Translations under genes and position numbers: made by a program
Assembly (NCBI GenBank): GCA_000182565.2
Contig: KQ257450.1
Strand: one strand, 5' to 3'
Length of the DNA stretch: 64,000 nt
Source of the DNA: Spizellomyces punctatus DAOM BR117
Taxonomy: Eukaryota
Shown: piece after piece, positions 4,224-29,082 of the stretch
Layout: the number at the start of each line of letters is the position of its first letter
How positions within the stretch are numbered: the first letter of the stretch is position 1
The notes under the pieces: generated by a model
Told to the model about the DNA's origin: nothing
Database searches by the model: none
The model's input: the letters and a program-made list of their open reading frames with translations, nothing else

Positions 4224-4524
4224 ATTGTCTCCTTTGACTATTTTTATGCTTAAAAAGTAATCTTAGATTAGCGTTTTTTAATTCGTTACTTTAGTATTCA
4301 CTTTTTATTCTCTTTACGAGAGCCATATCCTACAACGAATAGATTAATCTGCTCAACATTTGATGCTTAAAGTCCGTGCTGAACAAATATCTTCCCGCCA
4401 TTTTGATCTGACCTCTGATCGACGAGTTTATGCACGTGATCAGGTCTCGCTCCCCTTGAATTTTTTTTGGTTTCCACCACCATAAGGATAAACTCCGCTG
4501 AAAGCCAACCCATCTACACACAAC

Positions 4525-15180: not shown

Positions 15181-18100
15181 ATGGCAGATCATCCATCATC
15201 ATCACAACTGCCAGAAATGGTACAAGTCAACAAGGTGGAGGATCCACCTGTAGAGGTTGCTGGCAACAACACAAATGACAGTTACAAGGTGGTGGAAGAC
15301 GATCGCAAGTCTACTCGCTCTCGCAAATCATCATTGCATGAATCCCTTCCCGTCATTCCTTCCATCTCTGCTACGCCTGCTCCCGCTGCATCCGGCCCCA
15401 AAGACCTCGTAGAGACCGCAGAAACATATGCACTTGTCAAATCAGAGAAACCGCCCGCCCCTCCCGCCTCCAAACCCGCTCCTGTCAAGCGCATCTCTTA
15501 CATGGCCCTCTTGATGCGTTACTCGACCAATCTGGAGCGTCTCTTGATGGTCATTGGTCTCATTGCTGCTTGCGGTGCTGGGGCCGTACTGCCGCTCATG
15601 ACCATCATCTTTGGTGACTTGACAAACACTTTTGGCGCCGTGCAAAACACAGACATGTCAGCGTTGACTCCCATCCAACGATCCGCCATCCAGGACGCCA
15701 TGCAAGACACCATCAATGAGAAATCCCTCATTTTTGTCTACCTCGGCATTGCCATGTTCTTTGCTACCTACATTTACATGGCCACTTGGCTCTTTACCGG
15801 GGAAAACATTTCCCATCGCATCCGTGAAGGCTACCTCCAAGCCATCCTCCGTCAAAACATTGCCTATTTTGACTCGACTGGTGGAGGCCAAGTCTCCACC
15901 CGCATCATCACCGATACCCAAATGGTTCAGGATGGCATTAGTGAAAAAGTACCCATGTTTTTCATGAACTTTGCCACCTTTGTCGCTGGTTTCGCCGTCG
16001 CCTTTTCCCACAGCTGGAAACTCACCCTCGTCCTCTTGTGCTGCGTTCCCGCCATTGGCATCACCGCTGCCTTTTTGGGACGCTTTGTCGGCAAGTATAC
16101 CCGTGAAGGACTCAACTCGTACGCGTCCGCCGGTGATGTCGCTGAAGAAACCTTTTCCTCGATTCGCACCGTCACCTCGTTCATGTCCCAAGAAAAAATG
16201 GCCAAAGTCTACTATTCCTTGCTCGGCAAGGCCGAGGTCTTTGGCATCAAAAAGCAAATCGTGACGGGAATGGGATGGGGCTGCATCCAGTTTGTCATTT
16301 TTTCGACATATGCCTTGGCCTTTTGGTACGGCTCCAAAATGCTCGTGGACAAGGAAGTCCTGCCCGGAGACATTATGACATGCTTCTTTTCCGTTCTCAT
16401 TGGTGCCTTTGCCCTCGCTGGTACTTCGAGTGAAGTCACTGCCTTTTCTTTTGCTATTGGTGCGGGGACAACCTTGTTTGAAGCCATTGACCGCCTGCCC
16501 GAGATTGACTCGGCAGCCCCAGGCGGTTACCGCCCTAACGAGGTCCATGGCCGCATTGTCGTCAAGGACGTGAAATTCCGATACCCCTCGCGTCCCGAAG
16601 TCGTTGTCCTCCACGGCATGACCTTGACCATTGAACCGGGAACGACTTGTGCGTTGGTGGGAAGTTCAGGTTCAGGAAAGTCGACCATTATTCAGCTCCT
16701 CGAACGTTTCTATGACCCAGAATCGGGCACTATTCATCTCGACGGTGTTGACATTACCACCCTCAATGTCAAATGGCTCCGTCAGCAAATTGGTTATGTG
16801 ACCCAGGAACCCGTCCTGTTCAAAGGGACCTTGTGGGAGAATGTCGCGCACGGTCTCGTTGGCACAGCCGACGAACAACTGCCAAAAGAGAAGAAAATGG
16901 ACAAGATTATCGAGGCATGCAAGTTTGCCAATGCCCACAACTTTATCATGGCCCTACCCCAAAAGTACGAAACCCGCATTGGTGAGCGCGGTCTGCTCCT
17001 CTCGGGTGGTCAAAAGCAGCGTATCGCCATTGCGCGAGCCATTGTTAAGAACCCACCGATTCTCTTGCTCGACGAGGCCACGTCCGCCCTCGACACCGAG
17101 TCTGAAAAACTGGTCCAAGAAGCGCTTGACCGCGCCGCGCAAGGCCGTACGACCATTGTCATTGCCCACCGACTCTCCACCATTCGGAACGCAGATAATA
17201 TCATTGTCATGGACCAAGGCAGAATCATTGAGACGGGTACTCACCATTCCTTGGTGGCAAAAGAAGGCGGGTTTTACCGTAAGTTGGTGGAAGCACAGCA
17301 GATTAGCGCCAAAAAGGAAGCAGAAGCAGAAAAGGCGAAACCCAAGGTGGACCCTGACGCCGTTGCCCTTGAGGATGAGCAAGAACCAGCAAAGGGTCTT
17401 GTCAGAGCCAACTCTGTGCACTCGACCCATAGCACCCGTTCGGGTAAAAGCATACCAGACGTGTCAACACCTGGCAAGACACCTCAACCTTCGACTCTCG
17501 ACACCCTCCGGATTTTTAACAAGATTATGAAGCTGAACCGTGCGGAAGCCCACTACATTGCGCTCGGTCTCCTCGGTTCCATTGTCAATGGCATCACCCA
17601 ACCCGTGTTTGCTATCCTCTTTGGACACTTTATCAACGTCTTTTTCATCGTGAATGACGATGCCAAATTACGGCACGATGCAGATTTTTGGGCGCTCATG
17701 TTTTTGGTGATTGGGATTGCCAATTTGTTTGCGAGTTTTATAAAGTTTACCATGTTTGGAATTTCGGGAGAAAAGTTGACCACTCGGTACGTTTTTTTTG
17801 GTTTTTTTTTTTAATTATATGGGACATTGAGCTGACGCTTTTTTAATTTATAGCCTGCGTGACAAGTCGTTCCGGACCATGATGCGTCAAGATATTGCGT
17901 GGTTTGACGTGGAAGAACACTCTGTCGGAGCTCTCACGTCCAACCTTTCCAACGACGCCCAAAATGTGCAAAACATGTCTGGCCAAATTGCTGGTAACCT
18001 CCTCGAACTCACCACGTCAATTCTCGGCGGTGCTATTGTAGCCGTCGCGACGGGATGGAAGCTCGGTCTGGTTGTCTTGTCGACCCTCCCACTCATGGTC

Positions 18101-19345
18101 GCCGCCAACAAACTCCGGATGGATTTGATTCGAAAGGGGAACCAAGCCACAAAGATTTACTATGAGCGGTCAGCTCAAGTTGCTTGTGAAGCCGTGGCAG
18201 CCATGCGCACCGTTGCGGCCCTCAGTCGTGAAGAGGATGTGGCTCAGGTCTACCACCACGACTTGGAAGAGCCTCTACGAATCGGTCGCCGAAATGCCAT
18301 TGGGAATACCGCCATTTACGCCTTCTCTCAAACCGTCACGTTCTTGATCAACGCCCTTGGGTTCTGGTACGGTGGTAAACTCATTGTCACGGGAGAATAT
18401 GGGGGCTCGGACGGTGTGCGCACCTTTTTCACAACGTTTATGGCCATTGTCTTTGCCTCCCAAGCCGCGGGCCGTGTCTTTTCGCTCATGCCCGATGTTG
18501 GTAAAGCGCACGATTCCGCTAAATACATGTTGGACCTCTTTGAGCGCAAACCCCCGATTGACAACTGGGACCCCTCTGGCACGAGCTTGGACAAGGCTAC
18601 CACCCAAGGCAAAGTTGAATTCAAAAACGTCCACTTTGTCTACCCCAACCGGCCATCCATCAAGGTCCTCCGTGGCCTCGACCTTGTTGTCAAACCAGGC
18701 CAATTCGTTGCCTTGGTTGGCCCTTCGGGTTGCGGCAAATCCACCACCATTGGCCTCATGGAACGATTTTACGACACTGTTTCTGGCACCATTACCATTG
18801 ACAACCAACCCATCAATTCCCTGTCCATTTCCAACCTCCGCGAGATTGTATCTCTGGTAGGCCAAGAGCCCAACCTCTACAACCTAACCATCAAGGAAAA
18901 CATTTGCTACGGCCTCCCTTCCATGCCCTCTGACGAAACCATTATCCAAGCCGCCAAAGACGCCAACATTCACGATTTCATCACATCCTTACCTGATGGG
19001 TACGATACCTCTCTAGGCGGAAAGGGCACCCAACTCTCTGGCGGCCAAAAACAACGCGTGGCCATTGCCCGTGCTTTAATCCGTAACCCCAAAATCCTCT
19101 TGCTCGACGAAGCGACATCCGCCCTAGACGCCACCTCTGAAAAAGTCGTCCAAGCCGCCCTTGATAAAGCTTCCCGGGGCCGTACGACCATTGCTATTGC
19201 ACATCGGTTGAGTAGTATCAAGGATGCTGATGTGATTTATGTATTCAAGGATGGTGTTGTTGCAGAGTCGGGGACTCATCAGAGTTTGATTGCCGAACGG
19301 GGACTGTATTATCAGTTGGTTGTTCAGCAGGATTTGAGTGGGTAG
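15181..19345 (+). CDS. Full-length ABCB (MDR/P-glycoprotein) transporter, one intron 17787-17853
   Basis: TMD-NBD-TMD-NBD layout. Walker A GSSGSGKST and GPSGCGKST, LSGGQKQR twice, ILLLDEATSALD twice. Intron GTACGT...TAG joins the two ORFs. Confidence 0.96.
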
Positions 19346-19461
19346 ACAGTTTGGGAATGGGGTTTTTTTGGTGTGTTGTATTTTTTTTGTTCTTTTTAGA
19401 TTTTAATACATGCCCTTGAAAAGAATACTGAATGGGACAATGTTTTTTCAAGAATGAACCA

Positions 19462-19491
19462 TAGTGCGGAGCCGGTGGGTATTGGCACTAG
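19462..19491 (+). repeat. Left terminal inverted repeat
   Basis: TAGTGCGGAGCCGGTGGGTATTGGCACTAG is the exact reverse complement of 21702-21731. Confidence 0.97.
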
Positions 19492-19577
19492 TACAGTGAT
19501 TCCAACCAATTGAATCATAATTTTACTCGATTTAGACTCATGAACTATGATTTGATAATGGTTCGATGCACAAACGA

Positions 19578-19756
19578 TGCTCCACCATTAAAAACGGGTC
19601 CAATATGTGCGGCAATGAACGGATTGAATATTCTGCAGTTGCTCCACCATTGAAAAACGGGTCCAATGCGCAGTTGTCATATCTCTATATAAACCCGCCT
19701 TCTCTGCCCATTTCCCAGGTTTTCATCATTCTCTTCCCATTTCCCAGGCTTTCATC
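19578..19756 (+). promoter_or_regulatory. Subterminal direct repeats and TATA-like box upstream of Fanzor
   Basis: TGCTCCACCATT(G)AAAAACGGGTCCAAT at 19578-19604 and 19640-19667; TATATAAA at 19686-19693; CCCATTTCCCAGG(T/C)TTTCATC at 19707-19727 and 19736-19756. Confidence 0.55.
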
Positions 19757-19777
19757 CATTTTTCTATTCCAATCATC

Positions 19778-21643
19778 ATGCCACCAAAGAAGAAGCAAAA
19801 ACTCGACAATCGACCTACCTGTCTGCATTCATGCAACAAGACTTCCTTTGCAAAGGCTTTCTTACCTAATGGGACCTACCGGCAGCGTCTTCTAGATTAC
19901 ATCGCCATCATCCATCAACTCGCCGACCACGCTTCCCACGCTCTCAAATTCTACATCCTATCTGCACCAACCTTCACCGTGAACGAGGAGACCATCGAAG
20001 CAATTCTCTATCTTCTCAACAAGGGGGAGGCTTGGCATCCAAGAAAGGAAGCAAAGAAGGCATGGCGGGATTGTTTGCTGCCATATGTTCAACGGTACTG
20101 CCAAATCGTCGGCTTCGTTCACCCAAATCTACGAGGCGAGCAGCAATCAGTCAATTACCTGACAGCGAGTATGATGGCGAACCTGAAAGTCAACGTTCAA
20201 GAACATTTCATGCAGATGCTCCTTCGGTATATCAATCTGCGGCTCGACGTGAAGGGACACAAGCAGCGACTGCCACTGAAAAGCGATGCGCGGCAAGCTT
20301 TCTTTACTCGGCTATGCTACTTGAAGTCAATTTTCCTTTTTGATATTGTGCCCGAGTCACTCGATGACTTGACCGCTGAAGAGAGTGAGCTTCTAGAAGA
20401 GATGTGGTCCTTCATTCCCCTTTCCGACCAGCCGCTCACATATTCAGTTGCTGTAGACCCTCTCGCCTTCTTCCCTGCCTACTGTCGGTTGTCAAGCCTA
20501 TATGAAAAGCATGGATTTCGACGGTTCAGTGCAATCCCACTTCGCCGCTCCCTCATCCAAAGCCATGTGCGGATCGACACCGTCATCCTCTACTCTCATA
20601 TCCTTTGCATCACGCGGCGAGATGCAGAAGCCGTAGCGAAGGTCGATTTATGGATGCGCATCTGCAATCTGCGTACCAAGGCTTTTCGGTCTCGCCACGA
20701 TATGCAGTTTGAAGGCTCAATCACAACGGACGGTACCTCAGTGTCTGTATACCTAAAGCACCCAGAAGCTGACAAGTACGGAAAGCGCGGAGCGAGAAAG
20801 TCAGCAAAGGCTCTAGCAGCTGAGGTGAAGGTGCTGTATGTGGAAAACAACTTATCTGCTTGTCAAGAGAACATTGTCGTTATCGATCCAAACAAGCGCG
20901 ACATTCTCTACTGCCAAGACAACAAGGGCACCATCTTCCGTTACACCGCCAATCAATGCTGCAAGGAGACTGGAAGCCGTCGATTTGCAAAAGAACGGCA
21001 GCGGATGAAAGCTGGCAGTATTGACCTCATAGAATCACGTATCCCAAGCCACAAGACGATGAACCTCATAGACTTCATGCGTTACCTTCTCGTTCGCTGC
21101 GCTGATTGGGATCGTCGAAAGGACTTCTATTCGCATCCTGCCCACACGCGGTGGAAGTGGCATGCATTTATAAACCGTCAGAAGAGTGAATCGAACCTCA
21201 TATCCAACTTATGCAACAAGTACGGTGAAAACTTTACCATTGTGATGGGAGATTGGAGCGATGCCGGTCGAACTGCAAGATTTCAGACCTCATCAAAGAC
21301 GAAAGGTTGGCGCACCCTCTTTAAGTGCAACAGGATCAACTGCTTCCTTCTCAACGAGTATAAAACCTCATCTGTCTGCCCTCACTGTTCATCCGATGAC
21401 TTCCTTGAAAAAGGTTTCAAAACACGACCTCATTCAAGACCTTGGCGACGACGAGAAGGCAAGATTGAAAAAGTCCATGGATTGCTGGGTTGTACCAACC
21501 CTAACTGTCAGCAAGCCTGGACGATGCGCTACTGGAATCGAGATACGCTGAGCACCTGCAATATGCTGATAATCGTGCAATCAATGTTGGATGGACACAG
21601 TAGACCAGAAGTGTTCAGCAGGAGTGTTCCAGCCGTAGCTTAG
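19778..21643 (+). CDS. Fanzor1 RNA-guided endonuclease (TnpB/Cas12-like, SpuFz1-like), 621 aa
   Basis: N-terminal NLS-like PPKKKQK; ITTDGTSVSV; RuvC-I VVIDPNKRD (D370); MGDWS; RuvC-II NEYKTS (E527); zinc finger CPHC...CTNPNC; RuvC-III WNRD (D589). Strongly resembles the recalled S. punctatus Fanzor1 sequence. Confidence 0.95.
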   Translation: MPPKKKQKLDNRPTCLHSCNKTSFAKAFLPNGTYRQRLLDYIAIIHQLADHASHALKFYILSAPTFTVNEETIEAILYLLNKGEAWHPRKEAKKAWRDCLLPYVQRYCQIVGFVHPNLRGEQQSVNYLTASMMANLKVNVQEHFMQMLLRYINLRLDVKGHKQRLPLKSDARQAFFTRLCYLKSIFLFDIVPESLDDLTAEESELLEEMWSFIPLSDQPLTYSVAVDPLAFFPAYCRLSSLYEKHGFRRFSAIPLRRSLIQSHVRIDTVILYSHILCITRRDAEAVAKVDLWMRICNLRTKAFRSRHDMQFEGSITTDGTSVSVYLKHPEADKYGKRGARKSAKALAAEVKVLYVENNLSACQENIVVIDPNKRDILYCQDNKGTIFRYTANQCCKETGSRRFAKERQRMKAGSIDLIESRIPSHKTMNLIDFMRYLLVRCADWDRRKDFYSHPAHTRWKWHAFINRQKSESNLISNLCNKYGENFTIVMGDWSDAGRTARFQTSSKTKGWRTLFKCNRINCFLLNEYKTSSVCPHCSSDDFLEKGFKTRPHSRPWRRREGKIEKVHGLLGCTNPNCQQAWTMRYWNRDTLSTCNMLIIVQSMLDGHSRPEVFSRSVPAVA

Positions 21644-21657
21644 ATTGGTTAGATTAG

Positions 21658-21746
21658 GTTTTCCGAGCCGGTTGTCGCCGGTTCAATCCCTGGTGCGGGT
21701 GCTAGTGCCAATACCCACCGGCTCCGCACTAAGAATAAACTAGGGT
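21658..21746 (+). ncRNA. Predicted Fanzor omegaRNA: ~74-nt scaffold (21658-21731) plus ~15-nt guide from flanking DNA
   Basis: Begins just after the stop codon and overlaps the right TIR. GAGCCGGT (21665-21672) pairs with ACCGGCTC (21717-21724); TGGTGCGG (21691-21698) can pair with CCGCACTA (21724-21731) as a pseudoknot. Ends are inferred by analogy to the SpuFz1 omegaRNA. Confidence 0.85.
21702..21731 (-). repeat. Right terminal inverted repeat (also the 3' part of the omegaRNA scaffold)
   Basis: CTAGTGCCAATACCCACCGGCTCCGCACTA on the + strand. Confidence 0.97.
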
Positions 21747-22637
21747 TTGGACAAGTGGGAAATTCCCATAGTGATGCAAAAGTATTCGGTCATTAAACGT
21801 CCAATCTACTCTTTATGTAATGTACCCAGTTGGTACTTCAGATAAGATCGTCTACAAATGTGGGGATAAACTAGGACAACTTTTATCCTAAAATGTCTCC
21901 CCATCCCCCACAATGATTACGTGATGCATATCAGGATAAGTTTTTTTTCATTCATTTCTTCGGGTGTTGATGTCAAAAGTGTGTACGCGGCGAGCAATGC
22001 GGATGACTCTATCCACCGTCCTCGCCGTATGAGGCTATGTACGTTGTCGAGTATTTTATCGTTGAGAGTTGGAAGAGTCACATGGCAAGGGGGGAGTGTG
22101 CATAGCCAATCTACCACAGTCTTCTTTTCCCCACATGCCAACAATTTACTGCGTTTGTATGTCATGTTGCATGGTTTGTCGTATTTTTGGTGAAAACTCC
22201 GTGAACACAAATGCATTGTCTCTTTTTGACTCTTTATGCAAAAGGGTTTTTTATTCATGACATCAGATTCGCTCTGAAGTGTTCTTTGCGTGTTTTCTTT
22301 GCGTGCGTGCGTGGGTGAGCGGAAATCTATTTCTTTTGGCATAGTTTTTTTTTTTTTTTCCTTTTTGACGTTGAGGTGTTATTGCTGGATGTGGCCATGC
22401 CCTCTTTTTAACTATTTTGACGCCATGTGAGATACATGGTTATGCAAATGAAAACTCCATGCTAGTGCGAGCAAAAAAGGAACAAGGCAAAAAAAATGGA
22501 TTTTTGCATAGCGTTGCGCACGTTACGGGCCAAAAGTGTATTATATAAAGGCAACCATTACAGCCGTTTCCCCACATCAAACAAAATACTTGAACATTTT
22601 AAACACACACACATTTTGTTTTTCTTGCTCTTTTACA

Positions 22638-23253
22638 ATGCTCAAAGCTCTCCTCTTCAGTCTTCTCCTCACCCTCGCAAGCAGCACACCATGTCGCCGC
22701 ACCAACACCCCAACCCCCCAAAAAGCTACATCCTACCTCCAACCTGACCCATCAGCCTCAACAAAGATAAACGGCACCGTGGACATCACCCAAACCAAAA
22801 CCGGTCTGCACCTCAAACTCTACATTCAAGGTCTTTCACCGGGTGAACACGGGTTCCATGTTCACGCCTTTGGATCCATTTTTCCCAATTGCACTGCAGC
22901 GGGTGATCACTTCAATCCTGACAACACTACCCATGGTGCTCCGACCGATTCTGTACGGCATGCCGGTGATTTGGGTAATATCGTTGCAAATGAGTTTGGA
23001 GTTGTTGATACTGAGATTGTGGATTCGGTTATTGCTTTGGATGGACGGTATAATATCATTGGGTAACGTAACAAGTGGTGATTTTTATCGGTTTTTTTTT
23101 TGTTGATGGTTTTTTTTGGGGTGTTATAGGAGGTCGTTTGTCGTTCATGCCAATCGAGATGATTTGGGTCGTGGGAATGCGCCGACGTCGAAAACGAATG
23201 GGAATTCGGGAGCGAGGGTTGCCTGTGGCGTTATTGGGATTGCTAAATCATAA
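22638..23253 (+). CDS. Secreted Cu/Zn superoxide dismutase (2 exons)
   Basis: Signal peptide [40 protein letters not shown]; second exon [13 protein letters not shown]...[13 protein letters not shown]. Confidence 0.92.
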
Positions 23254-28100: not shown

Positions 28101-29082
28101 AACATGCCGCATCATGAATTTCCGAGTCCTCACCAACTATGAATACTAGAATCCATGCTTGGCATGCATCGTAAGCTTTTCGCAGAGTTCCCCGTACGCC
28201 TCTGAGGTTCTGAAGATTACGTATTCGGACGCGCTCTAAAATGAGATGCTGCTTATTAGCCATTTGCTTTATCCGGTACACGACGTGACGATTTCACCTT
28301 TGGAGAAATCGTGAATCCAGTCTACAACGACCAAGAGTGAAGATATTGATATGTCAGCCCATGTCGATTCCCATAATGTATGTGATGACAACATTACCGA
28401 TAGTCGTAAAATCATCATACACAACTCTACGCCCTGTCCCTTCCATCGCCCATTCAAGAGAACTTGGATCATATTCATCAATCTGCAACGTACACTTAGA
28501 ATTCGGAATAAAACCATGCAACGCATGGTATCTCAACCTACTTTATTCGCATTCGAAGGCCCATGATAAACACCCGGAGAAGTGGGCATAAAACTTGACC
28601 CATCTCTTGTATGAGAAGATCTGGAACTGGATGACCTCCATGATGCGGCTAGTCCACCCAAGAACCGCTGTGCGCTGCTGCTGCTACTCCCAGTTGGTGT
28701 CCCCATCCCAGACGTGCGTCGAGAACTTGTTTTGCGCTTAAATGAAGAAAATGACGCTGGATCGGATCTAGGGCAACATGTTCCCTAATTAGAACCCTCT
28801 TCATAGTTCATGATGTGTATATTTCACATTGACCATTCTTGGCACAGTCCAGAATAGTTCGACTACATACCCCACACCTTCCTCCACATTATTCAACAAT
28901 CTCGCAGCGTCGGGTCGCCCACTCAGCCGTATTCCAGCTGCCGCTGCTGCAGCCTGCATATCAGCCTCATCGCCTTCCAAGTCCGTCAATGATTCTGCCG
29001 CTGTATCAATGCTCGACCGTTGAAGGAGTGGTGCAGTTGATGCCGCAGAGGGAGAAACCGATCGCGTTCGGTAAGCTGTCAT
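25169..29082 (-). CDS. CLC voltage-gated chloride channel/antiporter (GEF1/ClC-3-like) with CBS domains, many introns
   Basis: [65 protein letters not shown], and C-terminal [21 protein letters not shown]. Confidence 0.94.

Follow-up and report, generated by a model that had tools for sequence, protein, structure and literature searches.

We analysed a 64-kb stretch of Spizellomyces punctatus DNA, referred to below as the window. It contains a 2.27-kb element at 19462-21731 on the + strand (2270 bp counting both TAs), bounded by terminal inverted repeats at 19462-19494 and 21699-21731. The repeats are 33 nt long and 97% complementary with one mismatch, and their outermost 30 nt, TA included, are perfectly matched. 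A 28-nt piece of the repeat occurred exactly twice in the window and was matched 0 times in 100 shuffles. A single long ORF spans 19778-21643, and outside it the interval between the repeats comprises only 283 bp (19495-19777) and 55 bp (21644-21698); no DDE/DDD transposase is encoded inside the element. The longer of these two non-coding parts holds two pairs of direct repeats (19578-19604 with 19640-19667, and 19700-19727 with 19729-19756). Within the 64-kb window we found no further copies: two pattern searches recovered only the two repeat arms, and blastn of the element against the window returned only the element itself and its own arms. The element is inserted at a TA in an intergenic spacer, flanked by an ABC-transporter gene on the + strand and a Cu/Zn superoxide dismutase gene.

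The left junction reads gaacCATA followed by GTGCGG, with CATA at 19460-19463. The right junction reads CCGCAC, TA (21730-21731) and then the 15-mer AGAATAAACTAGGGT (21732-21746). A TA is present at both ends of the element and a CA precedes the left one, and both junctions were re-read exactly as the first-pass annotation had given them. The features of the locus are collected in Table 1.

Table 1. Features of the element and its flanks, with window positions and the evidence for each
Feature	Position	Strand	Evidence
Flanking CA, left; with the left TA makes the TAM 5'-CATA	19460..19461	+	Junction sequence; CA conservation in PMC10432273
Left TA; putative target-site duplication, last two TAM bases	19462..19463	+	Junction sequence; 'putative TA TSDs' in PMC3627910; duplication inferred
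Left terminal inverted repeat	19464..19494	+	Repeat pair I1 (33 nt including TA, 97%); shuffle test
5' non-coding part with two direct-repeat pairs, possibly promoter region	19495..19777	+	Repeat families D1, D5, D6
Fanzor1 gene, 621 aa, intact, SpuFz1 paralogue	19778..21643	+	ORF; 8gkh chain alignment
Omega-RNA scaffold, including right inverted repeat and right TA	21658..21731	+	Predicted fold; named-nucleotide match; pooled RNA peak
Right terminal inverted repeat	21699..21729	+	Repeat pair; shuffle test
Right TA (scaffold nucleotides 74-75); putative target-site duplication	21730..21731	+	A75 = 21731; predicted pairing
Predicted 15-nt guide = protospacer of the rebuilt empty site, AGAATAAACTAGGGT	21732..21746	+	Register: guide nucleotide 76 = 21732

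The Fanzor1 protein, the omega-RNA and its guide

The 621-aa product aligned with the SpuFz1 chain of PDB 8gkh over query residues 2-621 (E = 0, 1181 bits), at an identity of about 85% by a rough count on the printed alignment. Functional residues were taken from PMC10432273 (section 10) and counted by hand along the 8gkh alignment, in which the chain number equals the SpuFz1 residue plus 394. By this count, all four RuvC active-site residues (D383, N385, E541 and D606) are identical to those of SpuFz1, as are all six residues that read CATA (R96, Q129, Q130, N133, R291 and Y345); the conservation of these six TAM contacts bears out the 5'-CATA TAM assigned in the first-pass annotation. The protein also carries a C4 zinc ribbon (CPHC ... 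CTNPNC) and an N-terminal PPKKKQK motif. A Pfam search returned no OrfB_Zn_ribbon or TnpB-type match and yielded DUF7537 alone, under the cut-off (E = 0.071). We read this miss as a limit of sensitivity and not as a contradiction, because the close paralogue in 8gkh was deposited under the name OrfB_Zn_ribbon domain-containing protein.

The right end of the element resembles the reference omega-RNA scaffold. When reference nucleotide i is placed at window position 21656+i, the named scaffold nucleotides from A29 to A75 fit in nine cases out of nine, and in offset scoring this result was unique on the + strand of the 64-kb window. In this register the scaffold ends with A75 at 21731, and the guide begins one base later, at 21732. 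Across all named nucleotides (PMC10432273 section 10), 17 of 18 match if a one-base shift is allowed; G22 is mismatched, and between nucleotides 20 and 29 the present scaffold lacks one base relative to the reference. Because the named SpuFz1 nucleotides set the scaffold end at 21731, AGAATAAACTAGGGT represents the guide in its correct register, and the earlier proposal that the guide derives from the right flank is thereby upheld. In the published system, the first guide pair is nucleotide 76, adjoining the TAM, and the guide is 14-15 nt long (PMC10432273).

The centroid fold predicts two stems joined by a linker, stem 1 spanning 21665-21684 and stem 2 spanning 21691-21731. Stem 2 has an 8-nt loop, CCAAUACC, and an 8-nt loop is also described for the canonical omega-RNA in the literature. 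The terminal UA is predicted to pair within stem 2, with the UG at 21691-21692; the 3' target-site duplication has been located in the scaffold before (PMC13565253 section 6.2; preprint 10.1101/2023.08.09.552727). A tRNA-like origin of the scaffold, prompted by a GGTTCAATCC motif, was considered and rejected, as ARAGORN reported 0 genes and Rfam, with E values up to 10 allowed, returned nothing beyond a weak snoRNA match elsewhere.

Pooled RNA peaked over this region, with a depth of 4340 in the bin 21571-21721 and first mates on the + strand, and dropped to a depth of 15 in the bin that contains the guide. Most reads of the peak derive from other copies of the element, and their direction is that of the reads over the neighbouring + strand ABC gene. 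Among the 24 of 412 loose ends listed, 6022 and 4915 reads fell before 21650 and 21654, and 5089 reads fell behind 21695. The sequencing runs examined were X1, X8, X10 and X22, and among the runs listed none is recorded as RNA; no places at which reads begin or end at the locus were reported from these four runs.

TAM, rebuilt empty site and self-avoidance

Deleting 19464-21731 in silico yields AAGAATGAACCATA followed directly by AGAATAAACTAGGG, in agreement with the claim that removing the element and one TA rebuilds CATA next to the target. An empty allele that kept a single TA would read CATA plus the guide target, as in GAACCATAAGAATAAAC; since the left TA stands behind the host CA, CATA would lie directly before that target. 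A TA was presumably duplicated upon insertion.

In the occupied locus, the four bases preceding the 15-mer are ACTA. The occupied allele should be spared, as its target stands behind ACTA, which differs from CATA at two positions. Such self-avoidance, already proposed in the first-pass annotation, is consistent with the published SpuFz1 assay, in which mutating any base of the TAM abolished cleavage.

A CATA at one locus is weak evidence when taken alone, because CA precedes TA in 410 of the 5594 TA dinucleotides of the 64-kb window (7.3%, both strands). It gains weight because a CA is reported to be conserved ahead of the 5' inverted repeat across Fz and ghost loci (PMC10432273 section 7) and, modestly, because of other copies of the element: at least three X1 contigs from such copies begin their exact fit to the window at 19460, among the 24 of 664 contig pieces listed.

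We consider it probable that the element at 19462-21731 is SPu-1 (Spu-1), present as a full-length and apparently intact copy, and that its junctions fit a TAM-plus-guide model, with the empty allele as the RNP substrate and the occupied allele spared. SPu-1 is a non-autonomous transposon of S. punctatus with terminal inverted repeats, carrying the Fanzor1 nuclease SpuFz1. The right end of the element would encode the omega-RNA, whose scaffold would end at the A of the right TA, and the next 15 host bases would serve as the guide. The RNP would then cut the element-free allele, CATA plus target, about 16-21 bases into the target, the distance found in published SpuFz1 biochemistry, and the occupied allele, with ACTA before the target, would escape. 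A cut empty allele might finally have the element copied back into it, by homing or restoration. The present analysis supplies the anatomy of the element, the residue conservation and the register of the guide; the identity of the TAM, its strict requirement and the length of the guide are taken from the papers. The RNP of the present copy is presumably made and active.

The homing or restoration favoured in the first-pass annotation did not gain support. No empty allele was found in the listed contig pieces of runs X1 and X8 or in metagenome scans, where an exact-pattern scan with the repeat gave 0 stretches and a protein-seeded scan matched 156 stretches with 0 relatives by tblastn. Because no empty allele was found, homing can only be inferred. 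A partner transposase is not known for elements of this kind, and the authors of PMC10432273 give the role of Fanzors in biology as unknown.

Rival readings and the retention of the element

The rival reading that survives best, though we think it rather unlikely, treats the locus as a fossil: the sequence is intact, yet the element is immobile for want of a transposase, an empty allele never arises and the fit of the junctions is a relic, or else the omega-RNAs act in trans. It draws on the report that no transposase flanked by these repeats was found and on 134 ghost loci that encode the RNA without the protein, for which action in trans was raised (PMC10432273). We also saw no presence/absence difference in the three DNA runs X1, X8 and X10, in which none of the listed contig pieces skips 19464-21731 (X10 is without depth at either junction). 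A relic is harder to reconcile with a 621-codon ORF that is still open, with every checked functional residue kept, and with repeats that are perfect across 30 nt. Paralogues about 82% identical that retain their catalytic sites were also reported, and this was read as recent duplication or selection (PMC10432273). As for action in trans, the 64-kb window offers no second CATA-preceded site with fewer than four mismatches to the guide: the nearest look-alike has three mismatches, and the sole one behind a CATA, at 4485, has four.

We find it improbable that CATA is a mere insertion preference of the transposase, or chance at this locus, with no bearing on whether the nuclease helps to retain the element. 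A CA before the TA does have a 7.3% chance at a single locus, and co-evolved transposase target and TAM preferences are described in published reviews (PMC13565253). The conserved CA, however, is reported at the left end only (PMC10432273). The site is also non-palindromic, CA-TA-AG and not CA-TA-TG, an asymmetry seen here at one locus. A symmetric transposase alone would not always put CA at the left end.

Least probable, and in our view very unlikely, is that the TAs belong to the element and that nothing was duplicated, in which case the empty site would read GAACCA followed by AGAATAAAC, lack CATA and stay uncut by the RNP; the flanks (CA versus AG) would then be without any duplication. 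Elements with terminal inverted repeats but no flanking duplication are unusual. The TA does lie within the perfect 30-nt inverted repeat, PMC10432273 seems to count it in its own 30-nt repeat (to judge from CA, not TA, being named upstream), the duplication is merely 'putative' in Bao and Jurka (PMC3627910), and the empty site was not found in runs X1 and X8 or in the metagenome scans; yet the TAM has TA as its last two bases and adjoins the guide (PMC10432273), the system would be left without a natural target, and TA duplications are the rule in mariner-type Fanzor1 elements (PMC3627910).

Within the TAM-plus-guide reading, which we prefer, a CA found solely on the left of a non-palindromic site (CA-TA-AG) might, if this holds genome-wide, be the footprint of nuclease-dependent retention; we offer this tentatively, as a possibility. 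The transposase would require TA alone and insert in either orientation, and only copies with CA before the left end would possess an omega-RNA/TAM pair capable of cutting the matching empty site, which would allow them to be copied back. If true, this would be natural evidence for restorative homing of a cut-and-paste element by a Fanzor in a eukaryote. Whether Fanzors, in the hosts they come from, really restore such elements or help them to spread is a question left by the authors of the earlier work. The locus could provide a convenient test case, with unique flanks, an intact ORF and an empty site predicted to the base.

Relation to published systems

The novelty implied by the first-pass annotation does not hold, as its logic is already in print (PMC3627910, PMC10432273, PMC13565253, 10.1101/2023.08.09.552727). 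SPu-1, its terminal inverted repeats and a putative TA duplication were described in 2013 (Bao and Jurka, PMC3627910); the CATA TAM, a CA preceding the left repeat and a guide located past the right end followed in 2023 (Saito et al., PMC10432273, with 19 full-length loci); and a 2026 review assigns the 5' duplication to the TAM and its 3' counterpart to the scaffold (PMC13565253). The family, the TAM, the position of the guide and the duplication-as-TAM logic are thus all published, and the locus adds little biologically.

The present copy shares with SPu-1/SpuFz1 (PMC3627910, PMC10432273, 8gkh) a length of about 2.1-2.3 kb, one ORF, 30-33-nt terminal inverted repeats, TA ends, the left CA, a two-stem scaffold with an 8-nt loop, a guide that begins straight behind the terminal TA, and identical residues at the TAM-contact and catalytic positions. 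It differs from the SpuFz1 reference in protein length (621 versus 638 aa) as well as in sequence and in the shortened scaffold described above.

The resemblance extends to the TnpB/omega-RNA systems of IS200/IS605 and IS607 (PMC13565253, PMC10432273), in which the TAM also lies left of the element and the guide right of it, and the filled site is protected by the right end of the element replacing the TAM; the same filled-site argument was made for ISXfa1 (preprint 10.1101/2023.08.09.552727). Those elements, however, leave no scar when HUH or serine enzymes excise them, and they create no duplication, whereas the present element combines terminal inverted repeats with a putative TA duplication, as is typical of DDE cut-and-paste elements. 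The duplication itself supplies half of the TAM, and no partner transposase is known.

In giant viruses and other eukaryotes, Fanzor1 genes residing in Tc1/mariner-type elements (PMC3627910) likewise occur with a right-end guide RNA, terminal inverted repeats and TA flanks. Some of these elements encode, or rely on, an identified mariner or IS630-type transposase, in contrast to the present one.

A further point, which the first-pass annotation left aside, is that an element departing by cut and paste already produces a break, frequently with a footprint, instead of a clean CATA followed by AGAAT. DDE-type excision usually leaves a footprint rather than a clean junction. That such excision already leaves a break was raised in the 2026 review (PMC13565253).

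Element boundaries and the encoded nuclease

At its left end, the element, a full-length SPu-1 copy on the + strand, is bounded by gaacCATA (CATA at 19460-19463) followed by GTGCGGAGCC. At its right end, GGCTCCGCAC is followed by a TA at 21730-21731 and then by the 15-mer AGAATAAACTAGGGT at 21732-21746. The terminal inverted repeats show no mismatch from the TA through nucleotide 30 and are far beyond chance: one 28-nt segment of the repeat is present at two sites in the window, both of them element ends, and gave 0 matches in 100 shuffles. Together with the printed sequence at both ends and the ORF, these repeats bear out the junctions proposed in the first-pass annotation.

Features of the element and its flanks (window coordinates)
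Feature	Position	Strand	Details
ABC-transporter gene end	17879-19345 (stop codon ends 19345)	+	PF00664, PF00005
Terminal inverted repeats	19462-19494 vs 21699-21731		33 nt, one mismatch
Direct repeat pair, 5′ non-coding part	19578-19667		~27 nt, spacing 62-63
Direct repeat pair, 5′ non-coding part, directly upstream of ATG	19700-19756		28 nt, tandem
Sole long ORF between the repeats	19778-21643	+	621 aa, N-terminus MPPKKKQK
Cu/Zn superoxide dismutase ORF	from about 22536, to 23066		PF00080

Read on the bottom strand, the right-end repeat is preceded by CTTA, which makes the CA one-sided and the insertion site non-palindromic. Within the window, CA precedes 410 of 5594 TA dinucleotides (7.3%), and CATA at a single locus is not beyond chance. 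The motif matters because PMC10432273 (Saito et al. 2023), in its available text, reports it family-wide, with 30-nt repeats whose 5′ member is preceded by a conserved CA. We compared the window over 18400-22900, at 80% likeness, with contigs of the sequencing runs X1 (of no recorded kind), X8 and X10 (both guessed to be DNA) and with the raw RNA reads of X22. Three X1 contigs with other copies fit the window from exactly 19460 and are unlike it upstream (consensus agreement 0.56); this start speaks less strongly for the motif, since a local alignment can gain one or two bases by chance.

Over query residues 2-621, the ORF product matched the SpuFz1 chain in PDB 8gkh (E = 0, 1181 bits), which is an MBP fusion and carries the name Spizellomyces punctatus Fanzor. 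Identity was ~85% by a rough count on the printed alignment; the available text of PMC10432273 gives ~82% among paralogues. A second, distant match was Parasitella parasitica Fanzor 1 (E = 7.7e-43), and Pfam left the protein unrecognised, returning DUF7537 only (E = 0.071, below its cut-off). We then mapped the residues named in section 10 of PMC10432273 onto the 8gkh alignment (chain number = SpuFz1 residue + 394, letter-checked at each residue). All TAM-reading residues (R96, Q129, Q130, N133, R291, and Y345) and metal-binding residues (D383, N385, E541, and D606) are identical in the ORF product, and the zinc-ribbon cysteines are kept. Overall, the element has the same anatomy as SPu-1, described in PMC3627910 with terminal inverted repeats and a putative TA target-site duplication (TSD). 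On this basis, the most probable source of the window is S. punctatus or a very near relative. In X10, which carries another organism label, contigs of diverged Fz copies skip 72, 74, and 78 bases at 20092-20165, 20322-20397, and 21331-21410; the skips lack GT..AG ends and represent deletions, or variant copies, in a relative.

The ABC stop codon lies 116 nt upstream of the element, and the superoxide dismutase ORF ~800 nt downstream. RNA reads of the ABC gene extend as far as the left junction, where bin 19306-19456 has a depth of 28, and the insertion may thus sit within the 3′ UTR of this gene. The direct repeats in the 5′ non-coding part may be promoter elements.

Guide register, scaffold, and RNA reads

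The reconstruction of the empty site depends on the start of the guide, because a guide beginning at the TA would mismatch the rebuilt site. Section 10 of PMC10432273 gives a scaffold of 75 nt and a guide of 15 nt and names 18 scaffold nucleotides; the first RNA-DNA pair is nucleotide 76, directly adjoining the TAM. The nine named nucleotides from the linker on (A29, C32, C34, U35, G37, C40, G70, A72, and A75) all matched with reference position i at window 21656+i, and no other + strand offset in the window scored nine (five scored eight). A75 is therefore 21731, the A of the right TA, and nucleotide 76 is 21732, placing the guide proposed earlier, AGAATAAACTAGGGT, in the published register. 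The nucleotides from U5 to G20 matched (8/8) one base further on, at 21657+i, and the scaffold thus lacks one base relative to the reference, between nucleotides 20 and 29 (window 21677-21685); G22 matched in neither register.

The centroid fold of the predicted scaffold comprises two stems, the first with a UGUC loop and the second with an 8-nt loop in common with the canonical omega-RNA in the available text of PMC10432273. The terminal UA pairs with UG at 21691-21692. Taken alone, the fold energy (z-score -1.77) is unremarkable. GGTTCAATCC at 21680-21689, shared between stem 1 and the linker, resembles the B box consensus of RNA polymerase III promoters; ARAGORN and Rfam found no tRNA-like gene there.

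Over the ABC gene, which lies on the + strand, first mates of X22 fell on + at a depth of 51 against 0.09 (bin 19155-19305), and + in X22 therefore represents RNA of the + strand. Bin 21571-21721 reached a depth of 4340 on + against 15 on -. Reads of this peak diverge from the window before 21650 (6022 reads) or 21654 (4915) and behind 21695 (5089), and 6050 of 6184 carry a C at 21653. Most of them derive from other copies, and the diverging copies are probably the ghost-type scaffold of PMC10432273. The bin containing the guide had a depth of 15. Pooled over copies, the scaffold family is abundantly expressed. Over 19608-20060, in the 5′ portion of the Fz ORF, first mates fell on - (22-53, against 0.7-7 on +), opposite to the neighbouring ABC gene; this suggests antisense RNA across the 5′ portion of SPu-1, with reads pooled from every copy at 80% likeness or higher.

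The rebuilt empty site and its predicted cleavage

Deleting 19464-21731 joins GAACCATA to AGAATAAACTAGGG. On paper, the junction is the published TAM CATA followed by the guide target, as the first-pass annotation had predicted. In the filled allele, the target is preceded by ACTA, whose two departures from CATA fall on the positions that R96 and Q129 read. The self-avoidance proposed from this difference agrees with the available text of PMC10432273, in which mutating any TAM base completely abolished cleavage. Elsewhere in the window, the nearest guide match is at 28549 on the minus strand, with three mismatches and no CATA in front; a single look-alike, at 4485, does follow CATA and has four mismatches. 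The rebuilt site (19451-19463 joined to 21732-21744) also forms an imperfect tandem 13-mer, AGAATGAACCATA / AGAATAAACTAGG, 9/13 alike in register. This may be chance: once the element is removed, 158 of the window's 61692 positions (0.26%) have an equal or higher period-13 score, and ~1% score as high when periods 8-16 at 77% are allowed.

No joint skipping the element was found in X1, X8, X10, or X22 over 18400-22900, but X10 has no depth at either junction and is uninformative here. One 939-nt contig of X1 starts at 21703, continues without a difference into the right flank, and represents the filled allele. No second copy was found within the 64-kb window, and metagenome scans for the empty allele and other copies were blank.

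The element anatomy, the conserved residues, and the guide register are observed; the steps that follow are conditional. The element would have inserted at a TA with duplication, its copy at 19462-21731 would supply an active RNP, and the element-free allele would be cut and then copied from the filled allele. PMC10432273, in its available text, names no known transposase for SPu-1 elements, and reports that the RNP cuts dsDNA carrying CATA and a guide match, on the non-target strand after bases 16-17 and on the target strand after 20-21. In the rebuilt empty site, the cut would be expected at about window 21747-21752. DDE-type excision often leaves a footprint between both TAs, and the CATA/AGAAT junction would then be lost. 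Such excision itself leaves a double-strand break, the reason given in a 2026 review (PMC13565253) for the rarity of OMEGA systems with DDE transposases. Given this break and the frequent footprint, the natural substrate would therefore be an allele that was never occupied or was restored precisely, requiring a sister chromatid, homologue, or mating partner.

Relation to published systems

Every part of the model in the first-pass annotation is already in print. The available text of PMC10432273 counts 42 loci with Fz genes (19 full-length) and 134 ghost loci, draws the TAM regions in its locus scheme (Extended Data Fig. 3a), gives CATA as the TAM with a 14-15-nt guide lying past the right end, and proposes a TnpB-like cut-and-copy idea for Fanzors. 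CATA is likewise the TAM throughout the available parts of PMC11423790 and PMC13434818. Section 6.2 of PMC13565253 states that recognition of the TAM takes in the 5′ TSD and that the scaffold includes the 3′ TSD. Similarly, the available text of preprint 10.1101/2023.08.09.552727 reports TSDs incorporated into Fanzor1 scaffolds and shows self-avoidance through a non-TAM right end for ISXfa1. The earlier interpretation is right in structure and not new, and its functional side is predicted from sequence. In the literature reviewed, the meaning of a one-sided CA at a non-palindromic site is not spelled out; a reading of it as a footprint of nuclease-dependent retention, if the pattern held genome-wide, would be new and has a modest probability.
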